DNA from: Candidatus Eiseniibacteriota bacterium
GTDB lineage: Bacteria > Eisenbacteria > RBG-16-71-46 > JACRLI01
Assembly (NCBI GenBank): GCA_016235265.1
Contig: JACRLI010000014.1
Span: 247,405-311,404 of the forward strand
Direction: 5' to 3'
Length of the DNA: 64,000 bases
Part shown: in pieces, positions 16,992-36,284 of the stretch
Layout of the letters: each line of letters opens with the position of its first letter
Position numbering within the stretch: position 1 is the stretch's first letter
Position numbers and translations under genes: made by a program
Notes under the pieces: generated by a model
The model's input: the letters and a program-made list of their open reading frames with translations, nothing else
What the model was told of the DNA's origin: nothing
Databases searched by the model: none

Positions 16992-18505
16992 ATCCGGCCT
17001 CCCGCCCCCGGCCGGCCGGCCCGCTTCCAGGCCCCGCCGACCCCGTCGCCCGTCGCGGCCACCGCCTCCACGCGCGCCCCGCCCGTGGAAGGGTGCAGCA
17101 TCGCGTGCAGCGCCGCCGCGCGGACCGCCAGCGCCTCCTCCTCCTCGGTGGGTTGCACCGCCTGCGGATGGTAGAACTGGGCCACCATGCCCACGTCGCA
17201 GCGGCCTTCCACGAACTCGGGGTGGTTCAGCGCCCAGCGGTGGAAGGGGATCGAGGTCTTCACGCCCTCGATCACGTACTCGTGCAGCGCGCGCAGCATC
17301 CGGCGGCGCGCCTCGTTGCGGTCGCGGCCCCACGCGATCAGCTTGCCCACCAGGGAGTCGTAGTACAGCGTGATCTCGGAGCCCGGGTACACCCCCGCGT
17401 CGTTGCGCAGGCCCGGGCCGCTGGGCAGCCGGAATCTCGAGATCTTCCCGATGGAGGGCATGAAGTTCTTCTCGGGGTCCTCCGCGGTGATGCGGCACTC
17501 GATGGCGTGGCCGCGCGGCTGGATGTCCGCCTGCGCGAACGGCAGCTTGCCCCCGCTGGCCACGAACAGCTGCAGCTTCACCAGGTCGAGCCCGGTGACC
17601 ATCTCGGTCACGGGGTGCTCCACCTGCAGCCGCGCGTTGACCTCCAGGAAGTAGAAGTTCTGGTCCTTGTCCACCATGAACTCGGCGGTGCCGGCGTTGG
17701 TGTAGCCGGCCTGCAGCGCCAGGCGCACGGCGCAATCGCCCATGGCCCGGCGCACCTCGTCGCGCAGGTTGGGGGCGGGGGTTTCCTCGATCAGTTTCTG
17801 GTGGCGGCGCTGCACGGAGCAGTCGCGCTCGCCCAGGTACACGGCGCTGCCGTGATGGTCGGCCAGGAACTGGATCTCCACGTGGCGCGGGCGCTCGAGG
17901 TACTTCTCGAGGTACACCTCGTCGCTGGAGAAGGCGGCCTTGGCTTCCCCGCGCGTCAGCTCCAGCGCGGAGGCCATCTCCTCCTCGGCGCGCACCACGC
18001 GCATTCCCTTGCCGCCCCCGCCCGCGGAGGCCTTGAGCAGCACCGGGTAGCCGATCTGCTTCGCCTCGTGGAGGGCCTCCTCCAAGTTGCGCAGCGGCTT
18101 TTCCAGCCCGGGCACCATGGGCACCCCGGCCTTGCTGGCCAGGCGGCGCGCGGCCAGCTTGTTGCCCAGCGCGTTCATCGCCTCCCAGGACGGGCCGATG
18201 AAGGCCATGCCGGCCTTCTGGACCGCCTTCGAAAAGTCGGCATTCTCCGCCAGAAAGCCATAGCCCGGGTGCACCGCTTCGGCGCCGCAGCGCTTCGCGA
18301 TCTCCAGCAGCTTGTCCACGTTGAGGTAGCTTTCGCGGGCTGGCGGGGGACCTAGCAGGTAGGCTTCGTCGGCATGCAGCACATGGAGCGAGCGGCGGTC
18401 GGCTTCCGAGTAGACGGCCACACTGCCCACCCCGAGTTCCTTGAGTGCGCGGCTCACGCGCACGGCGATCTCGCCACGGTTGGCGATGAGCACCTTCTTG
18501 AACAC
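16988..18505 (-). CDS. accC: biotin carboxylase (AccC-type ATP-grasp)
   Basis: (V)[52 protein letters not shown] start at 18505 with GGAGG upstream. It is unclear whether this is the acetyl-CoA or the propionyl-CoA carboxylase paralogue. Confidence 0.85.
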
Positions 18506-18573
18506 GGGCACCTCCCCTCCACAATCGGCCAAAACCACGCTTCAGCATAGACCCGGTGCGGGGAGGGAGCAAG

Positions 18574-18599
18574 CTTGGTTGCATGCTTTGGTTGCATGC
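18574..18599. repeat. 13-bp direct tandem repeat (C/T)TTGGTTGCATGC x2 in the intergenic region at the left edge of the defence island
   Basis: Seen directly at 18574-18586 and 18587-18599. It contains the GCATGC core that recurs at 28453-28472 and 29448-29455. Confidence 0.6.
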
Positions 18600-18604
18600 A
18601 GTTG

Positions 18605-21600
18605 TTAGACTGCCCCCTTCGATGGTCCATCGGTGAACTTCCCGGCCCCGGCGAAACGCGTCCGGATGTACTCATCGGCGCTGCCTGCCACGAGCTTCAC
18701 CGTGCCCGGCCCGCTCCTCACAAAGAAGTCGCCGTCCTTGCTCGATTCCATTCCACTCCACTTCAGGAATACCGGCTCGGGGCTCCGCTGGCAGGTGGCC
18801 ACGCACACGGTCTTGCCCTGCACCATCTGGGTCTTCGTATCGATGCAGGTCCCGGCCCGATCGCCGAGGCCGTTGCGGACTGCCAGCGCGAGGTGCCGCA
18901 TGAACTTGTCGTCGCTCTCGAGCCGGTCCTTCTCGATCCCAACGATGGATCCGTCATCGGCGACGCCGATCAAGAGGTCGCCACCTTCGGTGTTCAGGAA
19001 CGCGGCGATGGTCTTCAGCACGGCGTGGGTCACAGCCGTGTCGTCCTGCCGGTCTTCCTGGAGGTTCCAGCGGAGCGTGGATTTGAAGTCGAGCGTCTTC
19101 GACCCACCGCGCTTGATCAGCTCCTCGGCGTTACGGTGGGCGCGCAGGTACTGGTCGAAGAGGAAGTTCTTGACGGTCTCGCCGAAGGCGCGGTCGTCGG
19201 TGATGCGCTTGTAGAGATCGAAGTTCGAGTCGACGATCTCCTGGATCACGTGCTCGACCTTCTGATCGAAAGTCAGCCGCACGTTTTCGCGGGTGTTGGC
19301 GCGCGCGGCGGCGTCGAGCGCCGCGTCGTCGTCGAGCTTTGCCATCATCTGCCCGAGAGTGACGCGATGCTCGGGGCCGAGGTTCAGACCGAAGCGCTCG
19401 TTCAACTCGGCGATAATGCGGGAGAGCGTCTCCAGCTCCTCCGGCGTGGTGCCGTGGCCCTGCTTGGTGCTCACGGGTTCGAGCACGCCGGGCCTGCGCT
19501 CAAGCGCGATCTTGCCGCTGCCGGTCTGCTGGATCCGGTACGACTCCATGTCGATGTTCTGCTGCACCTCACGGGGCAGCTCAGCGCGATCGGCGGGCAG
19601 GAGGCGCCGCAGGTGCCGCGCGAAGACGTAGAGCTTCTCCAGGTCGGCGTCGGCAAAGGTCAGGACCTGGGCCAGAAACGCGTAGAGCCGCACGTAGTCG
19701 GTGAGCTGACCGCGGAGGTCATGTCGCTCCTCCTCGGAGAGCGCCCCAAAGCGCTCGACTACGGGCGCGAGCACCGAATAGAGCCGGTCCTGTGTCGCCT
19801 TGGGGTCGAAGTAGACCTTGGCGAAGGCCTTCACATCGGCCTCGGTGTAGACCGGGAAGGCACCGAGTCGCGTCTGAATCTCGTATAGGAGGTTCGGGTC
19901 GGTCGCCTCCGAGAGCAGCGTGGTCTCGTAGTAGGGCTCGAACGCGGTCTTGATCTCGTCCGACTCGTTGGCGAAGTCGAGGACCATCGTGCCCTTCTTC
20001 TCGGGAGGCAGCGTGCGGTTGAGGCGCGAGAGTGTCTGTACGGCGTTCACGCCACCGAGCTTCTTATCCACATACATCGTATGCAGCAGCGGTTGGTCGA
20101 ACCCGGTCTGGAACTTGTTGGCCACGATCAGGAACCGGTGCTCGGGTTGCTCGAATGTCTTCGCCGTCTGCGCCTCCGGAAAGCCATTCATGCCTGATTC
20201 AGTGTATGACCGCCCGCCGTCCTGCACGGTGCCCGAGAACGCTACCAGGGCCTTGAACGGGTACCCGCGCTCGGCCAGGTACTTGTCCGCCGCCAGTCTG
20301 TAACGCACTGCATGCAGTCGAGAGCGGGTGACGATCATCGCCTTCGCCCTGCCACCGATCTCGCCCTGCACCTGGGTGGCGAAGTGCTCGACGCAGATCC
20401 TGACTTTCTCGCCGATCGCGTGCGGGTGCAGCTCGACGAACGACTTGAGCAGGTACTCGGCCTTCTTCTTGTCGTAGCGCGGGTCGTCCTCGACCTTCTT
20501 CAGCAGCCGCCAGTACGCCTTGTAGGTCGAATAGTTCGCCAGCACGTCGAGGATGAATCCCTCCTCGATCGCCTGGCGCATGCTGTAGAGGTGGAAGGGC
20601 GCGAACTTTCCGTCGGGGCGCTTCGTGCCGAATAGTTCAAGCGTCTTCGGTTTCGGCGTGGCCGTGAAGGCGAAGGTCGAGAGGTTGGGAAGCCGCCCGC
20701 GCTTCTCCATCTCGGCCAGGATCGCGCTCTCCAGCTCCTCCTCGGGCGTCGCCGCCTCCGCCTCTTCCATCTCCGCCTCTTCGAGCGAGCCCGAGCTGAG
20801 CACGGCCTTGAGGCTCTTCGTGCTCTCGCCCGACTGCGAGGAGTGCGCCTCGTCGACGATCAGGGCGAAGCGCTTGCCCGGCAGCTCGCCAATCTCCTTC
20901 GCGATCACGGGGAACTTCTGGAGCGTGGTGACGATGATCGTCTTCCCCGACTCAAGCGCGTCCTTGAGCTGGCGCGAGGTCGTGTCGATGTTTTCGACCA
21001 CGCCGAGCGTCTGCTCGAACTGGCGCATCGTAGTCTGGAGCTGGCGGTCGAGCACGCGCCGGTCGGTGATGACCACGATCGAGTCGAAGACGCGTCGGTC
21101 GCCCGCGTCGTGCAGCGTCGCGAGCTGATGGGCGAGCCAGGCAATGGTGAAACTCTTGCCGCTGCCGGCCGAGTGCTGGATCAGGTAACGTCGCCCGGCA
21201 CCCAGAGCGCGTGCATCGGTCACGAGCTTGCGTACGCAGTCAAGCTGCTGGTAGCGCGGGAAGATCAGGAAGTGCCGGCCGGTCTTGCGCCCCTTCTCGT
21301 CCTCTTCCTCGACCTCGTGGATGAACTGGCGCACGAGGTCGAGCACGCTGTCGCGCGACCAGGTCTCCTCCCAGAGATAGGCGGTCGCATAGCCGCTCCG
21401 GGTGGGAGGCACGGGCGGGTTGCCAGCGCCGCCGAACTTGCCCTGGTTGAAGGGCAGGAAGCGCGTCCTCGGTCCGGCGAGCCGGGTCGTGACGTAGACC
21501 AGGTCGGGATCCACCGCGAAGTGCGCGAGACAGCGGCCGTAGGCGAGCAGCGGCTCGCGCGGATCGCGATCGGTCTTGTACTGGCGGATCGCGTCCTCGA

Positions 21601-22159
21601 CGTCCTGGCTGTTGAGGGGGTTCTTGAGCTCGGCGGTGAAGATCGGGATGCCGTTCAGGAACAGCACCAGATCGAGGCTGTTCTCGTTCTTCGTACTGTA
21701 GTGGACCTGGCGCACCACGGCGAAGAGGTTCGCAGCGTGCAGCCGCCGGGTCTCCTCGTTGAGCGCGCTCGCGGGACGGAAGTAGGCGAGGCGGAACTTG
21801 CAGCCCGAATCCTTGAGGCCGTTGCGCAGGACGTCGAGCGCCCCGCGGCGCTCGATCTCGGCGGCGAGGCGCTTCAAGAACTGCTCCCGGGCGGCCGCGC
21901 CGTGGTGCTGCTCGAGCTTCTTCCACTCCTTGGGTTGCGTGGCTAGGACGAAGTCCAGCACGTCGCGTGGCAGGAGGCAGAGCGTGCGGTCGTAGTGCTC
22001 CGGCTTGCGCTTGCGGTAGCCGCCCGGCGGTCTGTCACCAAATGGCGGCGGCGTCTCGCGCACGGCGGTAGTTTCCCCCGAGCATGCGTCCGGGCCGTGC
22101 TGGAGCAGGGCGCACTCAATCGCCTCCTCGAAGGAGCGTTCGGAGATCTCGGGGATCAT
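18605..22159 (-). CDS. hsdR: type I restriction endonuclease subunit R (HsdR) with a C-terminal AlbA_2/Schlafen-like domain fusion
   Basis: N-terminal HsdR nuclease domain; SF2 helicase motifs (AGSGKSFTIAWLAHQL; VDEAHSSQSG). The C-terminal 130 aa (TLDFKSTL...KTIAAFLNTEGGDLLIGVADDGSIVGIEKDRL) match the AlbA_2 (PF04326-like) signature. Confidence 0.88.
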   Translation of the reverse strand: MIPEISERSFEEAIECALLQHGPDACSGETTAVRETPPPFGDRPPGGYRKRKPEHYDRTLCLLPRDVLDFVLATQPKEWKKLEQHHGAAAREQFLKRLAAEIERRGALDVLRNGLKDSGCKFRLAYFRPASALNEETRRLHAANLFAVVRQVHYSTKNENSLDLVLFLNGIPIFTAELKNPLNSQDVEDAIRQYKTDRDPREPLLAYGRCLAHFAVDPDLVYVTTRLAGPRTRFLPFNQGKFGGAGNPPVPPTRSGYATAYLWEETWSRDSVLDLVRQFIHEVEEEDEKGRKTGRHFLIFPRYQQLDCVRKLVTDARALGAGRRYLIQHSAGSGKSFTIAWLAHQLATLHDAGDRRVFDSIVVITDRRVLDRQLQTTMRQFEQTLGVVENIDTTSRQLKDALESGKTIIVTTLQKFPVIAKEIGELPGKRFALIVDEAHSSQSGESTKSLKAVLSSGSLEEAEMEEAEAATPEEELESAILAEMEKRGRLPNLSTFAFTATPKPKTLELFGTKRPDGKFAPFHLYSMRQAIEEGFILDVLANYSTYKAYWRLLKKVEDDPRYDKKKAEYLLKSFVELHPHAIGEKVRICVEHFATQVQGEIGGRAKAMIVTRSRLHAVRYRLAADKYLAERGYPFKALVAFSGTVQDGGRSYTESGMNGFPEAQTAKTFEQPEHRFLIVANKFQTGFDQPLLHTMYVDKKLGGVNAVQTLSRLNRTLPPEKKGTMVLDFANESDEIKTAFEPYYETTLLSEATDPNLLYEIQTRLGAFPVYTEADVKAFAKVYFDPKATQDRLYSVLAPVVERFGALSEEERHDLRGQLTDYVRLYAFLAQVLTFADADLEKLYVFARHLRRLLPADRAELPREVQQNIDMESYRIQQTGSGKIALERRPGVLEPVSTKQGHGTTPEELETLSRIIAELNERFGLNLGPEHRVTLGQMMAKLDDDAALDAAARANTRENVRLTFDQKVEHVIQEIVDSNFDLYKRITDDRAFGETVKNFLFDQYLRAHRNAEELIKRGGSKTLDFKSTLRWNLQEDRQDDTAVTHAVLKTIAAFLNTEGGDLLIGVADDGSIVGIEKDRLESDDKFMRHLALAVRNGLGDRAGTCIDTKTQMVQGKTVCVATCQRSPEPVFLKWSGMESSKDGDFFVRSGPGTVKLVAGSADEYIRTRFAGAGKFTDGPSKGAV

Positions 22160-23517
22160 GCGACCTCCTTCCGCACGTCGATCCTGCCCGTCACGGCGGC
22201 TGAGATGAGCGCGGCGCGGAGTTCCTGGAGGCGGTCGATGGCATCGCGGACTTTTGCGACCAGGGCGTCGATTCGCGCCGTCTCCCGATCAAGGACAACT
22301 GCAATGGCGACTTGCTCCGAATGGGGCGGCACCATCATGTGCATTCGCGACAGGTGTGAGGGACCGAAGTGCTGAATCGCACTCCCGCAGCGAGCAAGCT
22401 CTGTCTGTGTGAGAAAAGCTCCAGAAAGAAGGAACCACCGAAGAAAAGTCCTCACCATCGTGCCGGCGCGTGGTCGCATGATGATGATGCCTGTGTAGGG
22501 AACGGCACCTTGAGTTTCCACGTCCACCTCAGAGCAGAAGCCAGTCGAGGCGCTTCCGCTAATCAGAAGATCGCCGATCCGAACGCAGAAGTGATCCCAC
22601 CTCCGATGGACCAAGTCGGGTGAAAGGTAGTTGCAGCCACTGAGACTTGCCCTTCGTCCGCCGATGCCAGCAATCCGAAGCAACGGAATACCATCGTTCG
22701 TGAAATCAGACGCCATGATCCCCGGGCCTTCCAGGAAACGTACTTCTCTCTTAAGCGGCTTCACCTCCCAATGCGCGGGAATCTCTCCCAGCCACTCGAC
22801 ACCGGAGTCCTTCGTCGGGACACACGGGTCGAGGCCATTGGTGACGGCGCGCGTGATGAGGGCGGTGCGCTGCTCCTGTAGCAGCGCGATTAGCCGCTCC
22901 TTCTTCGCTACCAGCGCATCGATCCGCGCCGTCTCCCGGTCGAGGAAGGCGGCGATGGCGCGTTGCTCGGGGATGGGGGGGCTCGCCAGCTCGTACGTCG
23001 CCATCTCGCTTTCGTTGATAGCGGGAAAGCTCACGCCCTTGGAGTTCGCCACGACGCGCTCGACGAAGTACGGAGCTCGCAGGGCATACGCGGCGTAGTC
23101 GGTCGTCAGATCGTCCACGGGCCGGACGACAGCGAAGCCTGTCGAGACAACCATGCCAGGTTCTGGATTGCGGATCGGGGCGATTGCGCGGAGGTACGTG
23201 CGCACGGTCGACACGACCACGTCGCCGTCGCGCACGAGTCTTCGGGCACGGGATGGAGCCGAGGAGAACGCGAGTTGTTCCTGTTCGACGATTCGCCCGA
23301 GGCTGTTAACGCCTCCGATGTCCACGTAGACCATCTCGCGCCCGGGATCGGTGTCCTCCATGAGCGACTCCGGGTTCAGCGTGGCCAGATGCTTCAGCCG
23401 CTTCACCTCCCAATGCGCCGGAATCTCCCCCAGCCACTCGACGCCGGAGTCCTTGTAGGCCGGGTACGGCTTGAAGCGCGGGCGCGCGGGCGGCAGCGGC
23501 TGCACGGATTCCTTCAT
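22156..23517 (-). CDS. hsdS: type I restriction-modification specificity subunit (HsdS), two target-recognition domains
   Basis: The repeat DSGVEWLGEIPAHWEVK(R/P)LK occurs twice, and the conserved coiled-coil spacer LDRETARIDALVAK also occurs twice. Start is ATG at 23517, in an ATGA overlap with the upstream gene; the ORF-track N-terminal extension is spurious. Confidence 0.9.
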   Translation of the reverse strand: MKESVQPLPPARPRFKPYPAYKDSGVEWLGEIPAHWEVKRLKHLATLNPESLMEDTDPGREMVYVDIGGVNSLGRIVEQEQLAFSSAPSRARRLVRDGDVVVSTVRTYLRAIAPIRNPEPGMVVSTGFAVVRPVDDLTTDYAAYALRAPYFVERVVANSKGVSFPAINESEMATYELASPPIPEQRAIAAFLDRETARIDALVAKKERLIALLQEQRTALITRAVTNGLDPCVPTKDSGVEWLGEIPAHWEVKPLKREVRFLEGPGIMASDFTNDGIPLLRIAGIGGRRASLSGCNYLSPDLVHRRWDHFCVRIGDLLISGSASTGFCSEVDVETQGAVPYTGIIIMRPRAGTMVRTFLRWFLLSGAFLTQTELARCGSAIQHFGPSHLSRMHMMVPPHSEQVAIAVVLDRETARIDALVAKVRDAIDRLQELRAALISAAVTGRIDVRKEVA

Positions 23518-24593
23518 GCCGTTACCCTCCGGCGCTGTCCGCTCTGGTAATCGGTCCAGACCTGATCCATGTCCAACTCTTTCATTGCTTCGCGCAGCCG
23601 TTCGATCGCCTTCTGCGAGTAGCGATCGAAGCATGCCTTGCCGATCGTGATGCGGCGATAGCAATCCGCATCGTCCTTGATCTTCAGATGGCGGATCAGC
23701 GCCGTGGTCTTGGGTCCCGACAGCCCAAGGTGCTCCGCCACCTGATCCCGGCCGAGGTTGTAGAAGCCGAGCGAGTCCACCTTGTGAACCGCCACGACGC
23801 TGGCTCCGGGCGTGCCTTCGGGCACGAGCTGGATCGGAATCCCTTCCTTCTTCGCGATCCGCAGGTCGAGGGACGGGCCGGCCCCTGTGGCGGTGAGCTC
23901 GATCGCGGCGACGCCGGGGAAGACATCACTCCACTGCGAGCCCTTGCTGATCGAATCGCCGAGCTTGCGCAGCTCGCCATCGGTCGGCTGGATGCGGTCG
24001 CCCCGCATGGCGCCGTCGACGATCGCGAGCGCCCGGAGTTTGGCGGCAGCCTCGACCTTCCGTCGCTTGCCGGGCGTGAGGAGCCGCTGCACCTCCCTGG
24101 CCTCCTGCTCGAAGAGGGTCGCGAGATCGGTCGGCGGCGTGGTCGAGAGCGGCAGGACGCGAGGCGGAAGATGGACCTTGAGATCCTGATCGAACACCGC
24201 TCGGACGACATCGCGAAACAACGTCAGCCCGGCCTGGGCGTGGATGTAGAGGTGCTGTTCCGAGAGGTCGACCAGGTGGTGCTGGGCGGCGTCGCGCAGC
24301 GTGTTGATCGCCTGTAGCTGAAGGACCTGCTCCTGGCTCAAGAACCGGACCGAGCCGTCGCTAAGCGCCTTTCGCAGGCACTCGTCGAATCCGATCGTCT
24401 GCTTCTCCCGCGGCTTCCGGATCGCTCCTCCCCGATGCAGGATCGAAGCCTTGAGCAGCATCTCGAACGCGTGATCCAGCAGGATCAAGACGGCATCGAC
24501 GCGGCCCCGGTCCCAGGGCCGGTTGTAATGCTCGATGCTGAGCACGAGCGAGTCGACCGCCTTCGCGAAGAGCAGCCTGGATTCGCGCTTCAT
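23514..24593 (-). CDS. uncharacterized protein embedded in the type I RM operon (N-terminal alpha-helical domain + C-terminal HTH-like region)
   Basis: Real start is MKRESRLLFAKAVDSLVLSIEHYNRPWDRGRVDAVLILLDHAFEMLLKASIL at 24593 (ATGA overlap with the abiEii stop). C-terminal LGFYNLGRDQVAEHLGLSGPKTTALIRHLK resembles a winged helix. No motif was confidently recognised; it may be a DUF family associated with RM operons. Confidence 0.6.
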   Translation of the reverse strand: MKRESRLLFAKAVDSLVLSIEHYNRPWDRGRVDAVLILLDHAFEMLLKASILHRGGAIRKPREKQTIGFDECLRKALSDGSVRFLSQEQVLQLQAINTLRDAAQHHLVDLSEQHLYIHAQAGLTLFRDVVRAVFDQDLKVHLPPRVLPLSTTPPTDLATLFEQEAREVQRLLTPGKRRKVEAAAKLRALAIVDGAMRGDRIQPTDGELRKLGDSISKGSQWSDVFPGVAAIELTATGAGPSLDLRIAKKEGIPIQLVPEGTPGASVVAVHKVDSLGFYNLGRDQVAEHLGLSGPKTTALIRHLKIKDDADCYRRITIGKACFDRYSQKAIERLREAMKELDMDQVWTDYQSGQRRRVTA

Positions 24594-25522
24594 CGCGAGC
24601 GTTCCTCGCTCGGATTCCACGGGCCGCTCGGCAGCCAGGTCTGCGCGAACGGCTCGGTCGCGACGATGCTGTCCCGAAGCGGACCGAGGAAGCTCGTGAT
24701 CCGCTCGCCGATGGCGCCGAACCGCACCGGAGGTGGAATCAGCACGGCGCCCGCTGCGAGGTAGTTGCGCCAGCGAGTCGTGAGTTCCGGCAGGTGATAG
24801 AAGGCGGTGGTGAGAGCCCGCGGCGCCTCCTCCGTCCACGGCGTGCGTCGCCGCTCGAAGCAGGCGGCGACGGCGTGCTGCAGCGCAGCCCCATCGAACT
24901 CGAAGGCACCGGCCAGGGCCCAGACGTCGTGGAAGTCCTTCATCCGGCTGTTCCGCGTGTCGAGCTTGACCATGGCCTCGAACTTCTCCGCCACCGTCTG
25001 CTCGCGCGGATAGGCGCGCAGGCGAGGCGCCGGCAGCGACGAAAGCATCGTCGGATAGGTGATCTCCTCCGGCGCGATGGCGATCGCGTCGCCCACGCCG
25101 AGGTCGAGCTGGACCGCGATGCGGGCCTGACCCAAGAACGCACGAAAGCGTGCGCGCTTGCCGGAGTACTCCTCCTCGGCCCGGATCGCCTCCACGACCA
25201 GTTCGGAGAGATCGAAGCGGAGCCCGTCCTCGGGACACGCCACCGCGCAGATCTCCGCGATCAACGACAGGATCGCGGGGTCGTCCATGGTGCATGAAGC
25301 CAGCACGTCGACATCGCGGGTCGCCCGGTAGGGATCCGGCATCCAGACCGCAAGCAGGCTGGCGCCCTTCAGGATGCAGCGATCTCGCGCCGCGCAGGCG
25401 CCGAGGCGGAAGAGCAGCCGCTCGCCGGCGAAGCGCGCGAGCGTGCGCTCGAACTCCTCACCGCGTGCCTTGGCTTGGTCGAGCAGGCGCGCCCGGACCG
25501 AGGCCGCGACATCGGGGCTCAT
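24590..25522 (-). CDS. abiEii: AbiEii/AbiGii-family nucleotidyltransferase toxin (type IV TA, DUF1814-like)
   Basis: MSPDVAASVRARLLDQAKARGEEFERTLARFAGERLLFRL followed by a GS..DVDV-type NTase core (ILKGASLLAVWMPDPYRATRDVDVL). Confidence 0.8.
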   Translation of the reverse strand: MSPDVAASVRARLLDQAKARGEEFERTLARFAGERLLFRLGACAARDRCILKGASLLAVWMPDPYRATRDVDVLASCTMDDPAILSLIAEICAVACPEDGLRFDLSELVVEAIRAEEEYSGKRARFRAFLGQARIAVQLDLGVGDAIAIAPEEITYPTMLSSLPAPRLRAYPREQTVAEKFEAMVKLDTRNSRMKDFHDVWALAGAFEFDGAALQHAVAACFERRRTPWTEEAPRALTTAFYHLPELTTRWRNYLAAGAVLIPPPVRFGAIGERITSFLGPLRDSIVATEPFAQTWLPSGPWNPSEERSR

Positions 25523-26226
25523 ATCAACCTCACGTCGAGGGCGGCGCTCAGGCGGCGCGACGGAAGGACCTCGACGACGCGCGTCAGCTCGGCGACGGTC
25601 ACCTTGCGCTGGCGCAGGCCGTCCTGGAGCGCCTCCATCGCCGCTTCCGGGCCGACGAGCCGCTCGAAGCGGAAGCAGTCGGCCACGGTGCGCGCGGGCG
25701 AGGTGATTCGGGCCGGCACTCCCTCGAACGCCGTCTCCTGCACGCCGAAGTTCCAGGCCGGGCCGCTGAAACGCACGGTGCGCAGCTTCAGCTCGCGCAG
25801 TAGGGGCTTGCGCGCCTTGTGCGGGATGGCAAGCCAGACTTCCGCCGGCGCCTGGGTCCCGATGCCGTGGATCCGCAGTGCCGAGAGCAGGCAGACGATG
25901 CTGTTCGGCACGCGCGCGCAGGCCATGGCGATGGAGTAGTCCTCGGTCGGCTCGGCGCCCGTCAGGCGGTAGAGCCCACGTCCGACCCGCTCGACAAGCT
26001 TCGAGCGCAGCAGGGCTGGGAGGTGGTCCCGCGTCAGGCCAGCGTGTTCGAGCTGGGCAGCACGGAAAAAGCCGACGACCCCCGAACTGCGGAGTCGTTC
26101 GACCGGGTCCCGAGCCGCTCCTTGACCCGTTTTGTCGGCACGTCGAGGTGACATGACGACAATATGCGTCATGGGCCCGGCTCTCGTCAACACAAGATGT
26201 CGGCGCCTCTCCGTGAGTGCCGACAT
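25519..26226 (-). CDS. abiEi: AbiEi-family antitoxin / transcriptional regulator (wHTH + AbiEi C-terminal domain)
   Basis: GVVGFFRAAQLEHAGLTRDHLPALLRSKLVERVGRGLYRL is a typical AbiEi N-terminal HTH. ATGA overlap with abiEii. The start could be a few codons into the ORF. Confidence 0.75.
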   Translation of the reverse strand: MSALTERRRHLVLTRAGPMTHIVVMSPRRADKTGQGAARDPVERLRSSGVVGFFRAAQLEHAGLTRDHLPALLRSKLVERVGRGLYRLTGAEPTEDYSIAMACARVPNSIVCLLSALRIHGIGTQAPAEVWLAIPHKARKPLLRELKLRTVRFSGPAWNFGVQETAFEGVPARITSPARTVADCFRFERLVGPEAAMEALQDGLRQRKVTVAELTRVVEVLPSRRLSAALDVRLI

Positions 26227-26232
26227 CTTGTG

Positions 26233-28359
26233 TCAGCCTCGAGGGGCGGCCGCGCCCGTCACCTCGGCCAGCATCCGCAGGATTTCCTGCTCGATCCCCC
26301 GGATCTCGCCCTCGATCTCCTCGATCGGGCGCGGCGGGGTGTAGCGGTAGAAGTAGCGATTGAAGTTGATCTCGTAGCCGACGAGGCCGCCCTGGCCGTC
26401 CCTCGCATCCCGCTTGCTCGTGTCGATCCAGGCGTCGGGGACGTGGGGCTTGACCTCCCGCTCGAGAAACGCCTCGACGCGCTCTGCGAGCGGCACGCTC
26501 TCCGTGTCGCGCAGCTCCGGGTCCGGCTCGGGGTTGCTGTCCTTGTCCCGGCAGATGGCGGCGGACTCGTCGCGCTCGGACAGCGCGGAGAGGATGGCCT
26601 TGCGCGCCGGCGCCGGGAGCTTCACGCCGGTTTTCTTCGCGGCGGCATCGAGCAGGCGCTCGAACTCGTCGCGGTCCTTGACGAGGGTGCCGGGCAGCCC
26701 GCGCACGAGCTTACGGATCGCCCCCTGCAACGCACGCCCGTCGACCTGCTCCTTCGCCCCCGCAGCGCCCTTCTTCTTCGACTGCGCCAGCGCCTGGAAG
26801 CCCTTCTCCTCCTCGAGGCGGGCGATGCGCTCAACGCTCGCCTGGAAGCTGAGCCGCAGGGGGCGCTCGACGGTGATCTTGCGGAAGCCGAAGTGGGTGG
26901 TTGGAAAGATGCGGCTGACGACGACGTCCTCTTCCTTGCCGTCCTTCGCCACTTTCCGCGTCTCGCCATCCTTGAAGGCGGACAGGACCTTCAGGATGTC
27001 CTGCGAGCGTTCGAGGGGGATCTCGCGCCGCTTGTCACCGAGGCTCTTGCGCATCGGGACCCAGAATGAGATGGCGTCGATCAGCTGAACCTTGCCCTTC
27101 CGCGCCGGCGCCTTGCGGTTCGTCACCACCCACACATACGTGGCGATGCCCGTGTTGTAGAAGAGCTGCTCGGGGAGTGCGATCAGCGCTTCCAGCAGGT
27201 CGTTCTCCAGGATGAAGCGGCGAATCTCGCTCTCGCCGCTGCCGGCATCGCCCGTGAACAGCGGCGAGCCGTTCATGATGATGGCGATCCGCGAGCCGCC
27301 GTCCTTCGGGTCCCTTGCGTGCGCCAACATGTGCAGCAGGAACAGGAGCTGGCCGTCGCTGATACGCGGGAGCCCCGGTCCGAAGCGGCCCGAGGCGCCG
27401 CGCTCGTGCTCGGCACGCACGGCGTCCTCGTCGCGCTTCCAGTCCTTGCCGTACGGCGGGTTGGCGATCAGGTAATCGAACGTCTGGCCGGAGTGGCGGT
27501 CGTTGGAGAGAGTGCTGCCGTATGCGATGTTGTCGGCGTCGCGTCCGGTCGGGTCCTTCATGAAGAGATCGGACTTCGAGACAGCCCAGGTTTCGGGATT
27601 CACCTCCTGGCCGAAGAGATGGATCTCCGCACCCGGGTTCATCGCGGGCCGGAGGATCTCGCCGTTCTTCCGCAGGCCGACGGTGATGTGCTCCTTGGTG
27701 ATCATCAGCATGCCGCCTGAGCCGCAGCACGGGTCGTACACGGTGCGGATCGCCTTCTTGGCCTGGATTTCCTTCTCATCACCGGCAAGCATCAGATCCA
27801 CCATCAGATGCACAACATCGCGCGGCGTGAAGTGCTCGCCCGGATTCTCGTTCAGCGCTTCGTTGAACTTCCGGATCAGCTCCTCGAAGATCGTGCCCAT
27901 CGTCGGGTTGTCAATTCTGTCCGGATGGAGATCGACGTTCTTGAAGCGCTCGAGCACCTGGAAGAGCAGCCCCGCCTCATCGAGCTTGCTGATCGTGTTG
28001 TCGAAATCGAACTTCTCCAACACCTCACGCATGTTCGGGCTGAAGCCGGCGATGTAGTTGCGAAGATTGGCGGCGAGGTGCGGCGCGTCGGCCAGCAGCT
28101 TCTCGAAGTCGTAGCGGGAGGTGTTGTAGAACGCGAAGCCCGCTATCTTCCGCAGCTGTGGATCGAGATTCTCGAGCTTCTTGCCCCGCAGCTCGGCTTG
28201 CTTGCCGAGGACCTTGCCCTTGGTAGGAGCGAGCACGCAGTCGAGGCGGCGCAGGACGGTCAGTGGCAGGATCACGTCCTGGTACTTGCCGCGCTTAAAG
28301 GTGTCGCGGATCAGGTCCGCAACGCCCCAGAGGAAGCTGACGATCTCGCTATGGTTCAC
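26233..28359 (-). CDS. hsdM: type I restriction-modification DNA methyltransferase subunit (HsdM), N6-adenine MTase
   Basis: HsdM N-terminal domain; SAM-binding VYDPCCGSGGML; catalytic LIANPPYG; 708 aa with a long C-terminal extension. Confidence 0.92.
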   Translation of the reverse strand: MNHSEIVSFLWGVADLIRDTFKRGKYQDVILPLTVLRRLDCVLAPTKGKVLGKQAELRGKKLENLDPQLRKIAGFAFYNTSRYDFEKLLADAPHLAANLRNYIAGFSPNMREVLEKFDFDNTISKLDEAGLLFQVLERFKNVDLHPDRIDNPTMGTIFEELIRKFNEALNENPGEHFTPRDVVHLMVDLMLAGDEKEIQAKKAIRTVYDPCCGSGGMLMITKEHITVGLRKNGEILRPAMNPGAEIHLFGQEVNPETWAVSKSDLFMKDPTGRDADNIAYGSTLSNDRHSGQTFDYLIANPPYGKDWKRDEDAVRAEHERGASGRFGPGLPRISDGQLLFLLHMLAHARDPKDGGSRIAIIMNGSPLFTGDAGSGESEIRRFILENDLLEALIALPEQLFYNTGIATYVWVVTNRKAPARKGKVQLIDAISFWVPMRKSLGDKRREIPLERSQDILKVLSAFKDGETRKVAKDGKEEDVVVSRIFPTTHFGFRKITVERPLRLSFQASVERIARLEEEKGFQALAQSKKKGAAGAKEQVDGRALQGAIRKLVRGLPGTLVKDRDEFERLLDAAAKKTGVKLPAPARKAILSALSERDESAAICRDKDSNPEPDPELRDTESVPLAERVEAFLEREVKPHVPDAWIDTSKRDARDGQGGLVGYEINFNRYFYRYTPPRPIEEIEGEIRGIEQEILRMLAEVTGAAAPRG

Positions 28360-28452
28360 TGAGTTCGCTCTCCGTCCTCGCTGTTGGTGGCTGCGTCGTC
28401 ATTCGGACTGTCTAACGCTCGGCATCAGCGGCGGCGCGGAGCGCCGTCAGCT

Positions 28453-28472
28453 GCATGCTATTGTTAGCATGC
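28453..28472. promoter_or_regulatory. 20-bp perfect palindrome GCATGCTA-TTGT-TAGCATGC upstream of hsdM (candidate operator)
   Basis: Perfect 8-4-8 inverted repeat about 95 nt upstream of the hsdM ATG (28359), in the 120-bp spacer between the TIR-like gene and hsdM. Confidence 0.55.
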
Positions 28473-28479
28473 TCTGTTC

Positions 28480-29322
28480 TCACAACGCCTTGTTCATATC
28501 CACAGATAGCCCAGCGGCCTTCAGCTCCTTGGCCAACTTCAACCGCCAGCCGCCCTCCATATCAAGCTTGACGTAGAGTACTCCCGAGTAGTCGGAAAGC
28601 ACCTCAATGCCCTCCACAAACAGGGCGCACACGCGGGACCGTCCAAGCCGGCCAAGGAAGAACCCGAGTTCAAGGATCACGTTCTGTCGCGCACGAAGGT
28701 GCAGCTCGTCATTCGATGCAGTCGCCAAGCCGCCGCGATCGTCGCCGGTGAGAAGCACGACTGCGAACCCTACGTCGCTGTAGTCTTCGAACTTCTCGAT
28801 AATAGTCCGGCCGCAATTGGGCTGCTCACGAAGCAAGATCACCTCTTGATCCAGCTTCTCAAGGAAGCGCGCCACGCTCTGGATTGCCGCCTCGTCGTGA
28901 CCGTGCACCAGGAAGATCCGGTGGCCCTTTGGGGCGTTCGCCAATACGCCGGAAACAGTGCCGGCCCCTTGGAGTTGCTGCTCCGTCCTGAGCAGCTCAA
29001 GCAAACCATCAAGACGGGCAAGCTGCGTTTGGAGGCTTTCCGCCCGGTGGCTCTCCCACCATCCTTCACCTGCCCCCATCGGGAAATCCCCGTACTTTCC
29101 CACATCCGTCACGCTGCTCACGTTTGGCGAGTTGCGACCGAACGCCTTCTCAAGGTAATTCCGGGTCACCAGCTCCCACTGCCCGTGGGAATCACTACTG
29201 AGGGGACGCGATTGCAGGAGTTCGCGTCCCTTCCCGAGTTGCTCCTCCAGGAGGCGGATTCCCGTGGCAGAGTCAACATCCGGGCGTCCGGGAGGGTCTG
29301 GCTCTTTGCGTTTACTTGCCAT
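28480..29322 (-). CDS. TIR-like nucleotide-binding domain protein (COG4271-type), N-terminal domain of unknown function
   Basis: C-terminal half IFLVHGHDEAAIQSVARFLEKLDQEVILLREQPNCGRTIIEKFEDYSDVGFAVVLLTGDD...RARQNVILELGFFLGRLGRSRVCALFVEGIEVLSDYSGVLYVKLD matches the 'predicted nucleotide-binding protein containing TIR-like domain' signature. SD GGAGAGAGA. Lower GC than the flanks. Confidence 0.8.
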   Translation of the reverse strand: MASKRKEPDPPGRPDVDSATGIRLLEEQLGKGRELLQSRPLSSDSHGQWELVTRNYLEKAFGRNSPNVSSVTDVGKYGDFPMGAGEGWWESHRAESLQTQLARLDGLLELLRTEQQLQGAGTVSGVLANAPKGHRIFLVHGHDEAAIQSVARFLEKLDQEVILLREQPNCGRTIIEKFEDYSDVGFAVVLLTGDDRGGLATASNDELHLRARQNVILELGFFLGRLGRSRVCALFVEGIEVLSDYSGVLYVKLDMEGGWRLKLAKELKAAGLSVDMNKAL

Positions 29323-29770
29323 CCGGTCTCTCTCTCCGTCGCTCCGCGCCTCTTAACGAGAATTCGACCGCCATGGATCAGCAGTTCGGCAGCCCCGTCC
29401 AATCTAGTCGCTCCCGCTACCCTCCGGTGCAAGCCCTCTGGAAAACTGACCTTGCATGCACGCTCCCCGACTCCCCCCGCGGTAGGCAGCACGAAACGTC
29501 CAGGCCCGGTCAGTATAAAGCCGGTCCACCGGACTCACCACCCCAAGCCGCTGGGATTCAGCACGGGGGCATCAGCAGCCAGGCTGCGAGCTGGGGGCCT
29601 CGCGGACACAGGCGCAGCTCGATCCACCCGTACAACGTATGCCCCAGGTGATGATCCAGCGCAGCGCGCACTTGGAACGCTTTCGGGCGTTGCTGTCGCG
29701 ACACCGGGGCCTGTCCCGGATCTTCCGGAAGCCGCACTCTCCCTGCCGCAACCTCCGTGTCGGCGCCACA

Positions 29771-29799
29771 TTGACACCCCCGCGCAAAGCCGATAGCTT
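29771..29799 (+). promoter_or_regulatory. candidate sigma70 promoter upstream of yajC
   Basis: TTGACA (29771-29776), 17 nt, TAGCTT (29794-29799); about 118 nt upstream of the yajC ATG. Confidence 0.4.
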
Positions 29800-29917
29800 C
29801 CGATCCGTGTGTCCCGCGCGCTCCACGGGTGGTGCCCGGGGGGTTCCAGGGAGCCAGGCGCGCGCCGATTGCCCGCCCCTATCCGACCCGCAACTTCAAT
29901 GGTTTCAAGGAGGTTTC

Positions 29918-30244
29918 ATGTCCTTCCTCCCGCTCCTCGCCGCCGCGCCGGGAGGCCCGCAGATGTCCGGCTGGCAGGCCCAGCTGATCAACCTGGCGCC
30001 GCTGTTCCTGATCTTCGTGGTGTTCTACTTCGTGCTCATCCGTCCGCAGCAGCAGCGCCAGAAGAAGCTCGCCGAGATGATCGGCGGCATGGCCAAGGGC
30101 GACAAGGTGGTGACCTCCGGCGGGATGGTGGGCACGGTGTGGGCGGTGCGCGACAACGAGGACACCGTGGTCATCCAGGTGGCCGACACGCGTCTCGACT
30201 TCCTGAAGAGCGCCGTTGTCCAGGTCATCAAGCCCGGCAAGTAG
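29918..30244 (+). CDS. yajC: preprotein translocase subunit YajC
   Basis: MSFLPLLAAAPGGPQMSGWQAQLINLAPLFLIFVVFYFVLIRPQQQRQKK...GGMVGTVWAVRDNEDTVVIQVADTRLDF. SD AAGGAGG. ORF 29639..30244 has a spurious 5' extension. Confidence 0.9.
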   Translation: MSFLPLLAAAPGGPQMSGWQAQLINLAPLFLIFVVFYFVLIRPQQQRQKKLAEMIGGMAKGDKVVTSGGMVGTVWAVRDNEDTVVIQVADTRLDFLKSAVVQVIKPGK

Positions 30245-30254
30245 GGGCCCGCAC

Positions 30255-30797
30255 GTGGCACGACTGCCGATTCGCCTTTACGGCGACCCGGTGCTGAAGG
30301 CCCGGGCCGAGAAGGCCCCCGGCCCCAGCGAGAACCTGGCCCGCCTGGCCGCCGACATGTTCGAGACCATGGACGCCGCGCGCGGTGTCGGCCTGGCGGC
30401 CACCCAGGTGGGCGCCCTGGAACGCCTCATTGTGGTGAGCGTGCCCACCGGCAAGGAGGGGGAACCGCCCTTCCGCGCCGCGCTCGTCAACCCGGAAGTG
30501 GTCGCCACCTCCGGGCAGCAGGTCGGCGAGGAGGGCTGTCTCAGCTTCCCCGGGCTGTACTTCGAAGTGAAGCGCGCGAAGACCGTGAAGGTCCGCGCCA
30601 TGGGGCTGGACGGGAAGCCGGTGGAGGTGGACGGGGAGGGGTACCTGTCCCGCGCCCTGCTGCACGAGATTGACCACCTCGACGGCGTGCTCTACATCGA
30701 CCGCATCTCCACGGTGAAAAGAAGCCTGCTCCGCGGCAAGCTGGAGGACATCCGGCGCCGCGGGGCCGCCGGCGAGTCCCGCGAGGATGATGAGTAG
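30255..30797 (+). CDS. def: peptide deformylase
   Basis: The GVGLAATQVG, EGCLSFPG and HEIDHLDG motifs. The start is either GTG at 30255 or upstream at 30216. Confidence 0.9.
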   Translation: MARLPIRLYGDPVLKARAEKAPGPSENLARLAADMFETMDAARGVGLAATQVGALERLIVVSVPTGKEGEPPFRAALVNPEVVATSGQQVGEEGCLSFPGLYFEVKRAKTVKVRAMGLDGKPVEVDGEGYLSRALLHEIDHLDGVLYIDRISTVKRSLLRGKLEDIRRRGAAGESREDDE

Positions 30798-30843
30798 CTT
30801 CCCGCGCTCCGAACGCCCAAGCACCTGCAACAGGAGGAACCAA

Positions 30844-35555: not shown

Positions 35556-36284
35556 ATGCGTTGGAAGATCCCGGGGCCGGTGATGGTGCTGGCCTTGGGG
35601 GTGGTGGCGTTCGCCGCGGGCGTGGCGATCTTCGACTGGGTGGTGATGCCGCGCCTGGTGCACCGCGGCCAGGACGTGCGCGTGCCGGACCTCGGCTCCA
35701 TGTCGCAACAGCAGGCCGAGCGGGCCGCGCGCGAGGGCGGGTTCGCGCTGCACGTGCGCTCGCAGCAGTTCGACGCCGCCGTGCCGCGCGGCTGCGTGTT
35801 GAGCCAGGATCCCCCGCCGGGCGTGACGGCCCGTCGCGGGCGCGCGGTGGAGGTCGTGGTGAGCCTGGGCGAGGAGAAAGCCACCATCCCGCCGCTGCGC
35901 GGGCAGGACTTCCGCGAGGCGCAGGTCACGCTGGGCCGCCTGGGCCTGCAGCCCGGCTCAGTGGCGCGCGTGTACTCCAATGATGTGCCGGTGGACCGCG
36001 TGGTGGCCACCGACCCCGGCCCCGACGCGCCCATCCCGCAGGACCGCCCGGTGCACCTGCTGATGAGCCTGGGCCCAGAAACCCCGCGCTTCCTGGCGCC
36101 CGACTGGGTGGGCTCGCCGGTGCGCGAGGTCACCGCCGCGCTGCAGCGCGCGGGTGTGCGCTACACGCTGGCCGGGCGCGACGCCGCCATGGCCGGCGCG
36201 GTCACCTCGCAGAACCCGGCTCCGGGCAGCATGGTGCGCGCGGGCGACCTGGTGACACTGGGCACCGGCAGGGCCGCGCGGTGA
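35556..36284 (+). CDS. PASTA domain-containing membrane protein (3 PASTA repeats)
   Basis: N-terminal TM helix (VMVLALGVVAFAAGVAIF), then three VPDLxGxxxxxA-type PASTA repeats. Confidence 0.8.
   Translation: MRWKIPGPVMVLALGVVAFAAGVAIFDWVVMPRLVHRGQDVRVPDLGSMSQQQAERAAREGGFALHVRSQQFDAAVPRGCVLSQDPPPGVTARRGRAVEVVVSLGEEKATIPPLRGQDFREAQVTLGRLGLQPGSVARVYSNDVPVDRVVATDPGPDAPIPQDRPVHLLMSLGPETPRFLAPDWVGSPVREVTAALQRAGVRYTLAGRDAAMAGAVTSQNPAPGSMVRAGDLVTLGTGRAAR

Follow-up and report, generated by a model that had tools for sequence, protein, structure and literature searches.

A probable acquired defence island between yajC and accC of a Candidatus Eiseniibacteriota bacterium: a TIR gene beside a type I restriction-modification operon with embedded AbiE and HEPN genes

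The window analysed here is a stretch of 64,000 nucleotides (nt) from a Candidatus Eiseniibacteriota bacterium (assembly GCA_016235265.1, contig JACRLI010000014.1, positions 247,405 to 311,404), and in the divergent promoter region of its yajC and accC genes it carries a block of defence-related genes which, with a probability of roughly three in four, is an acquired defence island of ~11.2 kb made up of two juxtaposed mobile units. The first unit would be a ~0.9-kb cassette with one TIR-domain gene (PDC-S35), and the second a ~9.9-kb type I restriction-modification (RM) operon from a clade with a Schlafen-tailed HsdR, in which a presumably autonomous AbiE pair, with an operator and promoter of its own, and a DUF3644 HEPN protein are nested between hsdM and hsdS. 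This reading draws on the identities of the genes, the insertion itself, the recurrence of six of the genes as an operon elsewhere, the modularity of what that operon contains, a promoter and operator within it, and the fold and motif of the HEPN protein. A preliminary description of the window had listed seven minus-strand genes in this block, and profile searches of the window's open reading frames (ORFs) with Pfam, PADLOC and NCBIfam confirmed both their positions and their identities. The features of the island are as follows.

29323-29770, minus strand: non-coding arm upstream of the TIR gene, insertion-derived (host yajC-promoter homology ends near 29780)
28480-29322, minus strand: TIR gene (PF10137, 1.9e-33; PADLOC PDC-S35, 7.3e-74)
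28410-28469, minus strand: element E, a 60-nt attC-like hairpin (covariance model R1, 81.7 bits)
26233-28359, minus strand: hsdM, 708 amino acids (aa), GTG start (PF12161, PF02384; PADLOC MTase_I, 4.6e-268, full length)
26161-26226, minus strand: predicted AbiEi-type operator and promoter within the operon (inverted repeat and sigma-70-like match)
25519-26154, minus strand: abiEi, 211 aa from a revised start (PF13338; PADLOC AbiEi, 7e-54)
24590-25522, minus strand: abiEii, DUF1814 nucleotidyltransferase (PF08843, 3.8e-39; PADLOC AbiEii, 1.6e-94)
23514-24593, minus strand: DUF3644 HEPN gene, 359 aa (PF12358; PADLOC PDC-S19, PDLC04951, 1.7e-160, aa 1-355)
22156-23517, minus strand: hsdS, 453 aa, two target-recognition domains (PF01420; PADLOC Specificity_I, 8e-111, aa 14-452)
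18605-22159, minus strand: hsdR-AlbA_2 fusion, 1184 aa (Pfam domains; TIGR00348)
18575-18610, minus strand: shortened copy of element E and a tandem repeat, overlapping the hsdR stop

The block is regarded as horizontally acquired because yajC and accC adjoin each other in relatives whose AccC is 77-79% identical to that of the window. In these three relatives (L039, L040 and L041) the two genes are divergent and lie 238-262 nt apart, and the synteny on either side of the empty sites matches that of the window. Homology to the empty sites stops near 18517, a few bases upstream of accC, and at ~29846 on the yajC side, where a conserved promoter motif extends to ~29780; the yajC-promoter motif GTGTCAATG is common to the window, L039 and L040. 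The GC content of the island is 0.650 against 0.705 and 0.706 in the two flanks, and its GC at third codon positions (GC3) is 0.71-0.90 against 0.92 +/- 0.04 in 28 flank ORFs (Mann-Whitney p ~0.003), a deviation that is real and modest and is strongest in the TIR gene and hsdS. The earlier characterization of the block as visibly lower in GC therefore stands relative to the flanks but not in absolute terms. In addition, the cassette proteins are 81-94% identical to proteins from metagenome-assembled genomes (MAGs) of Deltaproteobacteria and Acidobacteriota, while the host belongs to Candidatus Eisenbacteria, its flanking AccC matching a protein from a MAG of that group at 100% identity, and the horizontal acquisition proposed in the preliminary description is thus supported by empty sites, by the shift in GC and GC3 and by near-identical cassettes in other phyla. 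That the block is instead ancestral to the lineage and was deleted from the sampled relatives is very improbable: these relatives are indeed distant (AccC 77-86% identical) and the polarity of the event lacks formal proof, yet three independent relatives have the compact 238-262-nt spacer with promoter motifs conserved on both sides, the GC and GC3 of the island differ from those of the host, and the cassettes of the other phyla sit within unrelated flanks.

The suggested target-site duplication did not materialize, as no direct repeat of at least 14 nt joins the island ends; a 9-nt sequence, TGCATGCAA, occurs near both ends and may be chance. No tRNA gene that could serve as an integration site was found in the window, a search of 20 flank ORFs for a recombinase or integrase yielded housekeeping genes only, and Rfam gave no family match in 18300-30100. 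In the arm upstream of the TIR gene there is a core-site-like GTTAAGA (reverse complement of 29351-29357), 28 nt before the TIR ATG, as well as a GCATGC at 29454, and the small ORFs of this arm are without coding-type GC3. The GCATGC palindrome occurs five times (18581, 18594, 28453, 28467 and 29454) in 813 nt of non-coding island DNA, where 0.42 occurrences would be expected; together with the TGCATGCAA repeats it may represent a recombination core or a chance recurrence. At the accC edge of the island a promoter-like TTGCTC-17-TATGCT (18544-18572, minus strand) is kept, with TTGCCG/TTGCCC-17-TATTCT/TATCAT as its counterparts in the empty sites; the accC promoter survived the insertion, and hsdR now reads into it. 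Further away, between def and fmt, lies a gene for a protein of ~650-711 aa (30787-32922, plus strand) with no Pfam match, which is kept in position in relatives (L039 3853-5817 and L040 842-2779).

The RM genes have the hallmarks of a type I enzyme. HsdM has the features of an N6-adenine methyltransferase (PF02384, 2e-55; motif I DPCCGSGG and NPPYG), and a comparison of starts shows its GTG start (GTGAAC) to be conserved among homologues. HsdS has two target-recognition domains and the internal conserved repeats D2 and D3. HsdR consists of an HSDR_N domain of the PD-(D/E)xK type, a SWI2_SNF2/ResIII motor of superfamily 2 and a T1R_D3-like helical C-terminal region followed by the Schlafen/AlbA_2 domain; residues D163/E177/K179, the Walker A motif and the DEAH motif are invariant in the alignment of homologues, and the match to TIGR00348 (4.9e-62, 210 bits) lies under the cut-off of 284.6. 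Within hsdS two direct repeats (22253-22317/22904-22968 and 22750-22812/23392-23454, with 78% and 92% identity) map to the conserved stretches bordering both target-recognition domains and are a possible substrate for specificity shuffling.

The composition of the block was compared in ~110 related loci, obtained from one survey anchored on DUF3644 (31 genome loci plus contigs) and another anchored on HsdR (80 metagenome loci). Every DUF3644 homologue with at least 80% identity lies in the same six-gene operon, from hsdM to hsdR, with identical order and overlaps and with differing flanks and phyla: L001, L005/6/10 (Acidobacteriota), L008 and L009 (Deltaproteobacteria MAGs) and the decayed L003. 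That these six genes travel together is accordingly borne out, the operon recurring in at least five other contexts, each without the TIR gene. The same comparison revealed how variable its content is. DUF3644 is present in one of the 80 HsdR-anchored loci (L073, with a different gene order), the order in L042 is abiEi-abiEii-GmrSD-hsdS-...-hsdR(Schlafen), with GmrSD in the DUF3644 slot and the 4-nt overlaps kept, and in L001 and L008 AbiE is 43-47% identical to the window pair while DUF3644 is 83-94% identical. Since the slot holds DUF3644, GmrSD or nothing, and AbiE varies in sequence and position, the operon is, judged from these loci, a chassis with exchangeable inserts and not an indivisible system. 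Two of the loci are themselves decayed: in L042 (1-10684) all that is left of hsdM is 57 aa, hsdR is split, and the operon has gained an AAA_14/DUF4143 gene and insertion sequence (IS) elements, and in L003 (6060-16709) hsdM and hsdR are fragmented and DUF4411 genes have been inserted.

The preliminary description had gone further and proposed that all seven genes form one integrated system, the subunits of a single machine expressed from a single coupled transcript, on account of five tight gene junctions in a row. Four of these junctions are indeed exact 4-nt ATGA overlaps (abiEi/abiEii, abiEii/DUF3644, DUF3644/hsdS and hsdS/hsdR), but the fifth, a 6-nt gap between hsdM and abiEi, is an artefact of choosing the longest ORF: the true gap is 78 nt, because homologues of AbiEi start at a Met equivalent to 26154 and are called at 211-214 aa. 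The ATG at 26226 is part of an inverted repeat, of which it lies in the left arm, and does not recur as a start codon in homologues; related loci conserve the repeat at the DNA level, several of them without an ATG at this point, and the PADLOC AbiEi alignment begins at residue 52 of the long ORF that starts at 26226. The overlaps, moreover, are not special to the island, because operons of the host in this window show them too (e.g. 16464-16467 and 36281-36284). What speaks for a single machine, besides the four consecutive overlaps, is that the six-gene operon is intact in several genomes and that the overlaps are kept even when another gene occupies the slot. It is nevertheless a most unlikely explanation and has largely been refuted by comparative genomics, given that the TIR gene is missing from all other copies and itself differs in composition, that 79 of 80 operons in the HsdR family concerned are without DUF3644, which elsewhere stands alone or with other RM types, that AbiE has been exchanged and repositioned, that an internal promoter and operator and the 78-nt gap divide the operon, and that a 120-nt gap containing the 60-nt element E separates the TIR gene from hsdM. 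The obligate linkage of the parts and the single seven-gene transcript are both unsupported here, the first since components are swappable across related loci and the second since the AbiEi-type operator and promoter split the operon and the TIR gene is absent from other copies; an operon that serves as a chassis, next to a separate TIR cassette, is the reading retained.

The DNA between hsdM and the revised abiEi start is of particular relevance to this reading. Downstream of the inverted repeat ATGTCGGC...GCCGACAT (arms 26219-26226 and 26197-26204) comes TTGACG-18-CATATT (26190 to 26161). This sequence extends to 6 nt from the abiEi ATG and is the sole sigma-70-like promoter match on both strands of 18400-30000. 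In 13 of 23 related loci the repeat, in the form GTCGGCAC-N10-GTGCCGAC, is found no more than 300 nt upstream of abiEi, compared with 21 matches in 329 kb overall. Such an arrangement is consistent with an autoregulated AbiE module with a predicted operator, and the position of the promoter predicts an abiEi mRNA that is leaderless or near-leaderless. The genes abiEi-abiEii-DUF3644-hsdS-hsdR may be transcribable from this internal promoter, which would then also drive hsdS and hsdR.

The 359-aa protein described earlier as an unknown could be identified as a DUF3644 HEPN protein that corresponds to the PADLOC candidate PDC-S19. Its HEPN domain (aa 1-141) has the four-helix fold and the Rx4-6H motif of the HEPN superfamily, here R100-x4-H105, and R100 and H105 (RDAAQH) are invariant across 26 homologues with 60-92% identity; from these features the protein is predicted to be an RNase that cuts RNA via R100/H105. 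The C-terminal domain of ~200 aa is predicted to contain 4 strands in two hairpins, several helices and a low-confidence loop, and a Foldseek search of this half against the PDB gave nothing significant, only weak winged helix-turn-helix matches; in the structural model it is possibly a winged-helix domain. DUF3644 corresponds to the EC042_2821 HEPN family, which has been seen in R-M operons (Anantharaman et al. 2013, PMC3710099). Two more specific assignments were considered and rejected: HEC-08 membership, as the C-terminal half has two non-conserved Cys and no invariant Cys, and a PrrC-type anticodon nuclease, as the protein is without an ABC-ATPase domain. More distant homologues (45-61% identical) are found in further type I operons that have no AbiE, behind type III-like ResIII/N6_N4_Mtase pairs, beside Hma/GmrSD, or alone, including one solitary copy on an Azospirillum plasmid. 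In two Sphingobacteriales loci (L022 11106-12425 and L025 11106-12473) DUF3644 follows a type III-like RM system and precedes a stand-alone AlbA_2 + HATPase_c_4 + HTH/Fic_C gene, a second setting in which DUF3644 and Schlafen are neighbours; an AlbA_2 gene after DUF3644 was seen in these two loci only, and a general DUF3644-AlbA_2 link was not established.

At the other end of the operon, the Schlafen/AlbA_2 domain of HsdR (PF04326, 7e-17; aa ~1019-1155, nt ~18695-19105), which makes up roughly the final 170 residues, delimits a clade. Among the 80 HsdR-anchored loci, all HsdR proteins that are at least 67% identical and have their end covered carry the domain, and none at or below 66% does. 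The C-terminal 199 residues have 1175 relatives in a word-indexed search, of which the best 120 are 75-88% identical, and 2999 relatives at E <1e-10 in an exhaustive search. The motif of this family, ESKTLEFK, lines up with ESQSIEFK in SLFN11, whose catalytic residues are E209/E214/D252, the corresponding residues of SLFN13 being E205/E210/D248; the catalytic assignment made here follows from the alignment with SLFN11 and from residue numbers in the literature. Within the E-x4-E motif, the first position is E in 120 of 121 sequences and the second in 119 of 121, and the window copy is the sole one with G at the first position. It reads G1019-x4-D1024 (codons GGG and GAC, 19090-19105) and retains D1068/D1069, so that the RNase triad of Schlafen domains (E-x4-E...D) is present in the relatives and incomplete in the window. 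In Cash the residues used are E17/D22 (PMC13462974). At 44-50% identity, the same Schlafen subfamily is found at the C-terminus of proteins with unknown domains of ~270 aa, TPR or PLD-like domains or a second, divergent HsdR, a distribution that fits an effector joined to varied sensors. One of these proteins, P0437 (1329 aa), is a second HsdR-Schlafen fusion (46% identity in the Schlafen part) that additionally has a C-terminal Peptidase_S24 (LexA-like) domain. Prokaryotic Schlafen domains have been described as tRNA nucleases that are often RM-linked, and the fusions described in these papers involve methyltransferases and HsdS, not HsdR (PMC13462974; 10.64898/2026.05.29.728809); a literature search for 'Schlafen + HsdR' returned nothing relevant, and one for 'AbiE + type I restriction + embedded' nothing specific.

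The presence of AbiE follows this clade closely, which raises the question of whether some of the parts are coupled after all. It has been found within 12 of 14 complete Schlafen-clade operons, in the order M-Ei-Eii-S-R or M-S-Ei-Eii-R (the other two embed nothing), in three of five operons at 62-66% HsdR identity and in none of 27 at 43-57%. One may thus propose that the Schlafen-tailed type I enzyme and AbiE are co-adapted, DUF3644 and TIR being independent passengers, with AbiEi acting as the promoter and regulator for hsdS and hsdR as well as providing addiction, and with AbiEii and/or Schlafen acting as tRNA-directed fail-safes that are restrained by an intact RM system, as in PrrC-EcoprrI. 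Apart from the counts just given, this proposal can draw on the position of AbiE, which is always between hsdM and hsdR and upstream of hsdR, in two positions; on the divergence of the AbiE lineages (33-80% identity), which suggests repeated gain or retention; on the AbiEi operator and promoter, the only promoter-like site, preceding the overlap-coupled hsdS and hsdR; on the Schlafen subfamily being a C-terminal effector behind TPR, PLD-like domains and a second HsdR lineage; and on the precedent of PrrC-EcoprrI. It is still a doubtful proposal, as the correlation is confounded by phylogeny within a single clade, three loci (L045, L074 and L079) keep the RM genes without AbiE, AbiE is established as autonomous elsewhere, and the Schlafen site of the window is mutated. 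The modular reading, in which AbiE is one of several inserts, is therefore the one we continue with.

The TIR protein stands apart from the operon. It has an N-terminal domain of ~130 aa and a CAP12/Pycsar-effector-type TIR domain (aa 135-254), the PDC-S35 model (PDLC05005) matches it over aa 39-279, and its gene has the lowest GC of the island (0.60, with a GC3 of 0.71) and is absent from all other cassette loci. Its score against the NCBIfam Cap12 NADase model is 39, compared with a cut-off of 450, and membership of a CBASS, Pycsar or Thoeris system was rejected as there is no CD-NTase, PycC or ThsA among the seven island ORFs. By its domains and its distribution, it is a single-gene defence candidate outside the conserved RM operon.

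The boundary between the two units is marked by element E, which is located between the TIR stop and the 5' untranslated region of hsdM and has the layout (T)GCTAAC-AAT-stem with two single-base bulges-3-nt loop-stem-GAGC-GTTAGAC. Covariance model R1 finds one full copy in the window, and this copy is 88-92% identical to the element right after the hsdR stop in L043, L044, L052, L057 and L005. In the five closest relatives (HsdR 89-92% identical) E is directly 3' of the hsdR stop and reads GTCTAAC-AAC-AGCAT(G)CAGCGG(A)CGGCGC-TGC-GCGCCGCCGCTGATGCT-GAGC-GTT, and the flanks of independent copies diverge per locus right after GTT. These copies are at L043 8061-8120, L052 2959-3018, L044 9065-9120, L057 2786-2850 and L005 15972-16028, and further ones are at L042 1212-1272, L123 5293-5352 and L124 121-181. 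In L042 E follows an unrelated DUF4020 gene and precedes a truncated hsdM, while the two copies from a pattern scan of viral contigs (L123 and L124) are not beside an RM gene, one of them lying after a gene for a TPR protein. At the 3' end of hsdR in the window, there are only the first 20 nt of E (GTCTAACAACTGCATGCAAC, 18591-18610), overlapping the stop, and then a tandem GCATGCAACCAA x2 (18575-18599) that abuts the accC promoter; the similarity between the window and L005 upstream of hsdM starts exactly at GTTAGACAG. When folded as single strands, the copies form an outer stem of 7 bp and, past an internal loop, an inner stem that is interrupted by two single-base bulges at positions 16 and 24 and closed by a loop of 3 nt, with z of -3.4 to -5.0. 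Across ten copies 88% of cells pair, five pairs have compensatory changes, and covariation exceeds that of 499 of 500 shuffles, in an alignment whose fitting to the model biases it towards this structure.

An attC site has RYYYAAC/GTTRRRY boxes, an unpaired spacer, extrahelical bases and a small terminal loop (PMC5027507), and isolated cassettes outside integrons have been documented as single attC sites lacking an integrase (SALINs) and through attG insertion (10.1101/2022.09.11.507474). Judged by its sequence and its folds, E has this architecture, namely an imperfect palindrome within the range of 57-141 nt with boxes, spacer and bulges (GTCTAAC...GTTGGGC/GTTATTT in L043/L052), the R'' box of the window copy, TGCTAAC, being imperfect. 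Its context is different: where an integron would have an integrase and attI nearby, or a CALIN at least two attC sites within ~4 kb, the window has one full copy of E and no recombinase was found in 20 flank ORFs, and E is at best SALIN-like. The occurrence of E at cassette ends and after unrelated genes suggests an integron-type cassette mobility, and its presence on either side of the operon is the junction that would be expected of a circular cassette or of an array with one attC family. For the copy before hsdM two models were weighed, a top-strand crossover in the R'' box and an array whose cassettes have one attC family in common; the presence of E behind unrelated genes favours the array, while the data do not separate the two. 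A home-made finder of RYYYAAC...GTTRRRY hairpins was discarded as evidence, as it gave 1-9 matches per shuffled window, and a literature search for 'attC + type I restriction' returned nothing relevant.

The same hairpin might instead be a GC-rich terminator or attenuator without a U-tract, or a repeat of the repetitive extragenic palindromic (REP) kind, the cassette having moved by homologous or illegitimate recombination. This serious competitor, to which we give somewhat less than an even chance, would account for E always standing after a stop codon in gene orientation, and it is favoured by the lack of an integron integrase in the 20 flank ORFs and of a second full copy within 4 kb, and by how little a consensus match alone conveys when a loose search yields such matches in shuffled windows. 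On the other hand, the flanks of independent copies diverge exactly past the GTT of the putative core site, the homology between the window and L005 begins exactly at the GTTAGACAG sequence, E is found after hsdR in five loci and before hsdM in two (the window and L042), and the R-box stem of 7 bp, the spacer, the bulges on the ORF-proximal arm at 16 and 24 and the 3-nt loop match the published architecture (PMC5027507). Between an attC site and a terminator or REP-like hairpin, the odds on present evidence seem about even, and either way E sets the TIR gene off from the RM operon as a unit of its own. A bolder extension holds that defence operons can be giant integron-type cassettes, the 9.9-kb hsdM-abiE-HEPN-hsdS-hsdR(Schlafen) operon and the 0.9-kb TIR cassette both having attC-like hairpins of one family as their bounds and having been placed between yajC and accC by an integron integrase outside an integron, and that the HsdR-Schlafen fusion is a tRNA-cutting fail-safe to which AbiE is co-adapted; taken as a whole, this extension is rather unlikely. 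Defence cassettes of integrons have been reported to be small and streamlined (10.1101/2024.07.02.601686).

If the two-unit reading is followed, the island would function in successive layers. HsdM2S1 would methylate DNA and HsdM2S1(R2) would translocate and cut unmodified DNA as the first line of defence, while AbiEii would arrest growth once freed from AbiEi. A second line, directed at RNA or tRNA, may consist of AbiEii and the HEPN protein, joined in relatives by the Schlafen domain; it would halt translation if restriction fails or is inhibited, for instance by anti-restriction proteins, a fail-safe logic comparable to that of PrrC backing EcoprrI and most attractive for a Schlafen domain that is fused to HsdR. 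The ATGA overlaps would put abiEii, DUF3644, hsdS and hsdR under the AbiEi-controlled promoter. The TIR protein could act in abortive infection by depleting NAD+ after its N-terminal domain has sensed the infection, and both units may be mobilized as cassettes through site-specific recombination at the attC-like hairpin.

Several points weigh against this account. PDC-S19 and PDC-S35 are candidates whose function is predicted, and the Schlafen arm of the window is probably inactive because G1019 replaces a conserved E of the putative RNase site. The association of AbiE with the Schlafen-HsdR clade is strong (12 of 14, against none of 27 in more distant relatives) and could reflect functional coupling rather than co-residence, or shared descent. 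A sigma-70-like scan of 18400-30000, a pattern which Eisenbacteria promoters may not follow, found no promoter for hsdM or the TIR gene, and mobility as cassettes must contend with the absence of an integrase among the 20 flank ORFs and with the single full copy of E in the window.

Should the modular reading hold, the island would be a natural example of how defence operons are assembled, with a restriction operon as the chassis, a slot that takes different second-line effectors while translational coupling remains unbroken, and an embedded toxin-antitoxin (TA) pair that supplies an internal promoter. The HsdR-Schlafen fusions may be a PrrC-like arrangement with the tRNase built into the restriction enzyme itself, and the near-constant AbiE of this clade hints at co-adaptation. 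If E is truly attC-like, integron-type mobility would extend to cassettes ten times the usual size, and a scan that assumes a spacing of a few kb between attC sites would overlook such giant cassettes.

With regard to known systems, the individual proteins have recognizable counterparts. The AbiE pair matches the Pfam and PADLOC families of this type IV TA and abortive-infection system, including the 4-nt gene overlap and, at the sequence level, the upstream inverted-repeat operator expected for negative autoregulation; it differs by its location inside an RM operon, where its promoter precedes the overlap-coupled DUF3644, hsdS and hsdR and maybe drives the restriction genes. The DUF3644 protein has in common with EC042_2821, HEC-08 (Payne 2024) and Ishtar an N-terminal HEPN domain with Rx4H and an association with RM operons, whereas the zinc-finger tail of HEC-08, a validated relative, is absent from the window protein, which has no conserved cysteines in its C-terminal half. 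Ishtar comprises anti-plasmid proteins with a HEPN domain (DUF4145/DUF3644) and a C-terminal part of 5-7 beta strands and 3 helices (10.64898/2026.07.06.735840); the C-terminal half of the window protein models as 4 strands and helices and is set beside Ishtar by description only. Cash and SLFN-pAgo have the same domain family as the HsdR tail, as an effector fused to a nucleic-acid-sensing partner, and relatives of the window HsdR keep the triad; in the present case it is HsdR that serves as the partner and carries the domain at its C-terminal tip, and the window copy has G at the first catalytic position. The TIR protein shares the PF10137 TIR domain with the effectors of Cap12, PycTIR and Thoeris, its RARQNVILELGFF motif holding the candidate catalytic Glu, while its N-terminal domain is specific to PDC-S35. 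Element E resembles integron cassette ends in being a 60-nt imperfect hairpin with RYYYAAC/GTTRRRY ends that starts at or near a stop codon, with flanks that diverge after GTT and, like a SALIN, with no integrase; it departs from them in the size of the RM cassette (~9.9 kb and six genes), in a first bulged base that on the bottom strand would be C where G is usual, and in that neither IntI nor an array was seen.

As for the arrangement as a whole, the proposal of a new system in the preliminary description was not sustained, as DUF3644 matches PDC-S19 over its full length and TIR matches PDC-S35, both being catalogued candidates. A catalogue of 145 candidates has been compiled from genes that lie inside type I RM, BREX and DISARM systems ('guilt-by-embedding'; Payne, Hughes, Fineran, Jackson 2024, 10.1101/2024.01.29.577857), to which, from the names of the models, PDC-S19 and PDC-S35 appear to belong; a literature search for 'PDC-S19' returned no paper. 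The RM operons of that study, with PrrC-EcoprrI as the classical case, contain same-orientation extra defence genes between the hsd genes, as does the window, and the island thus belongs to a type already described, that of type I RM operons into which defence genes are embedded. Compared with those operons, the window nests two modules in tandem (AbiE and HEPN), all ATGA-joined and with an exchangeable slot, and its RM clade has a Schlafen-fused HsdR; compared with PrrC-EcoprrI, it is without an ABC-ATPase anticodon nuclease, and only the logic is likened. In conclusion, what is new relative to these systems is the HsdR-Schlafen clade with its near-constant AbiE, the exchangeable slot that preserves the overlaps, the predicted AbiEi operator and promoter inside the operon, and the attC-like cassette end.

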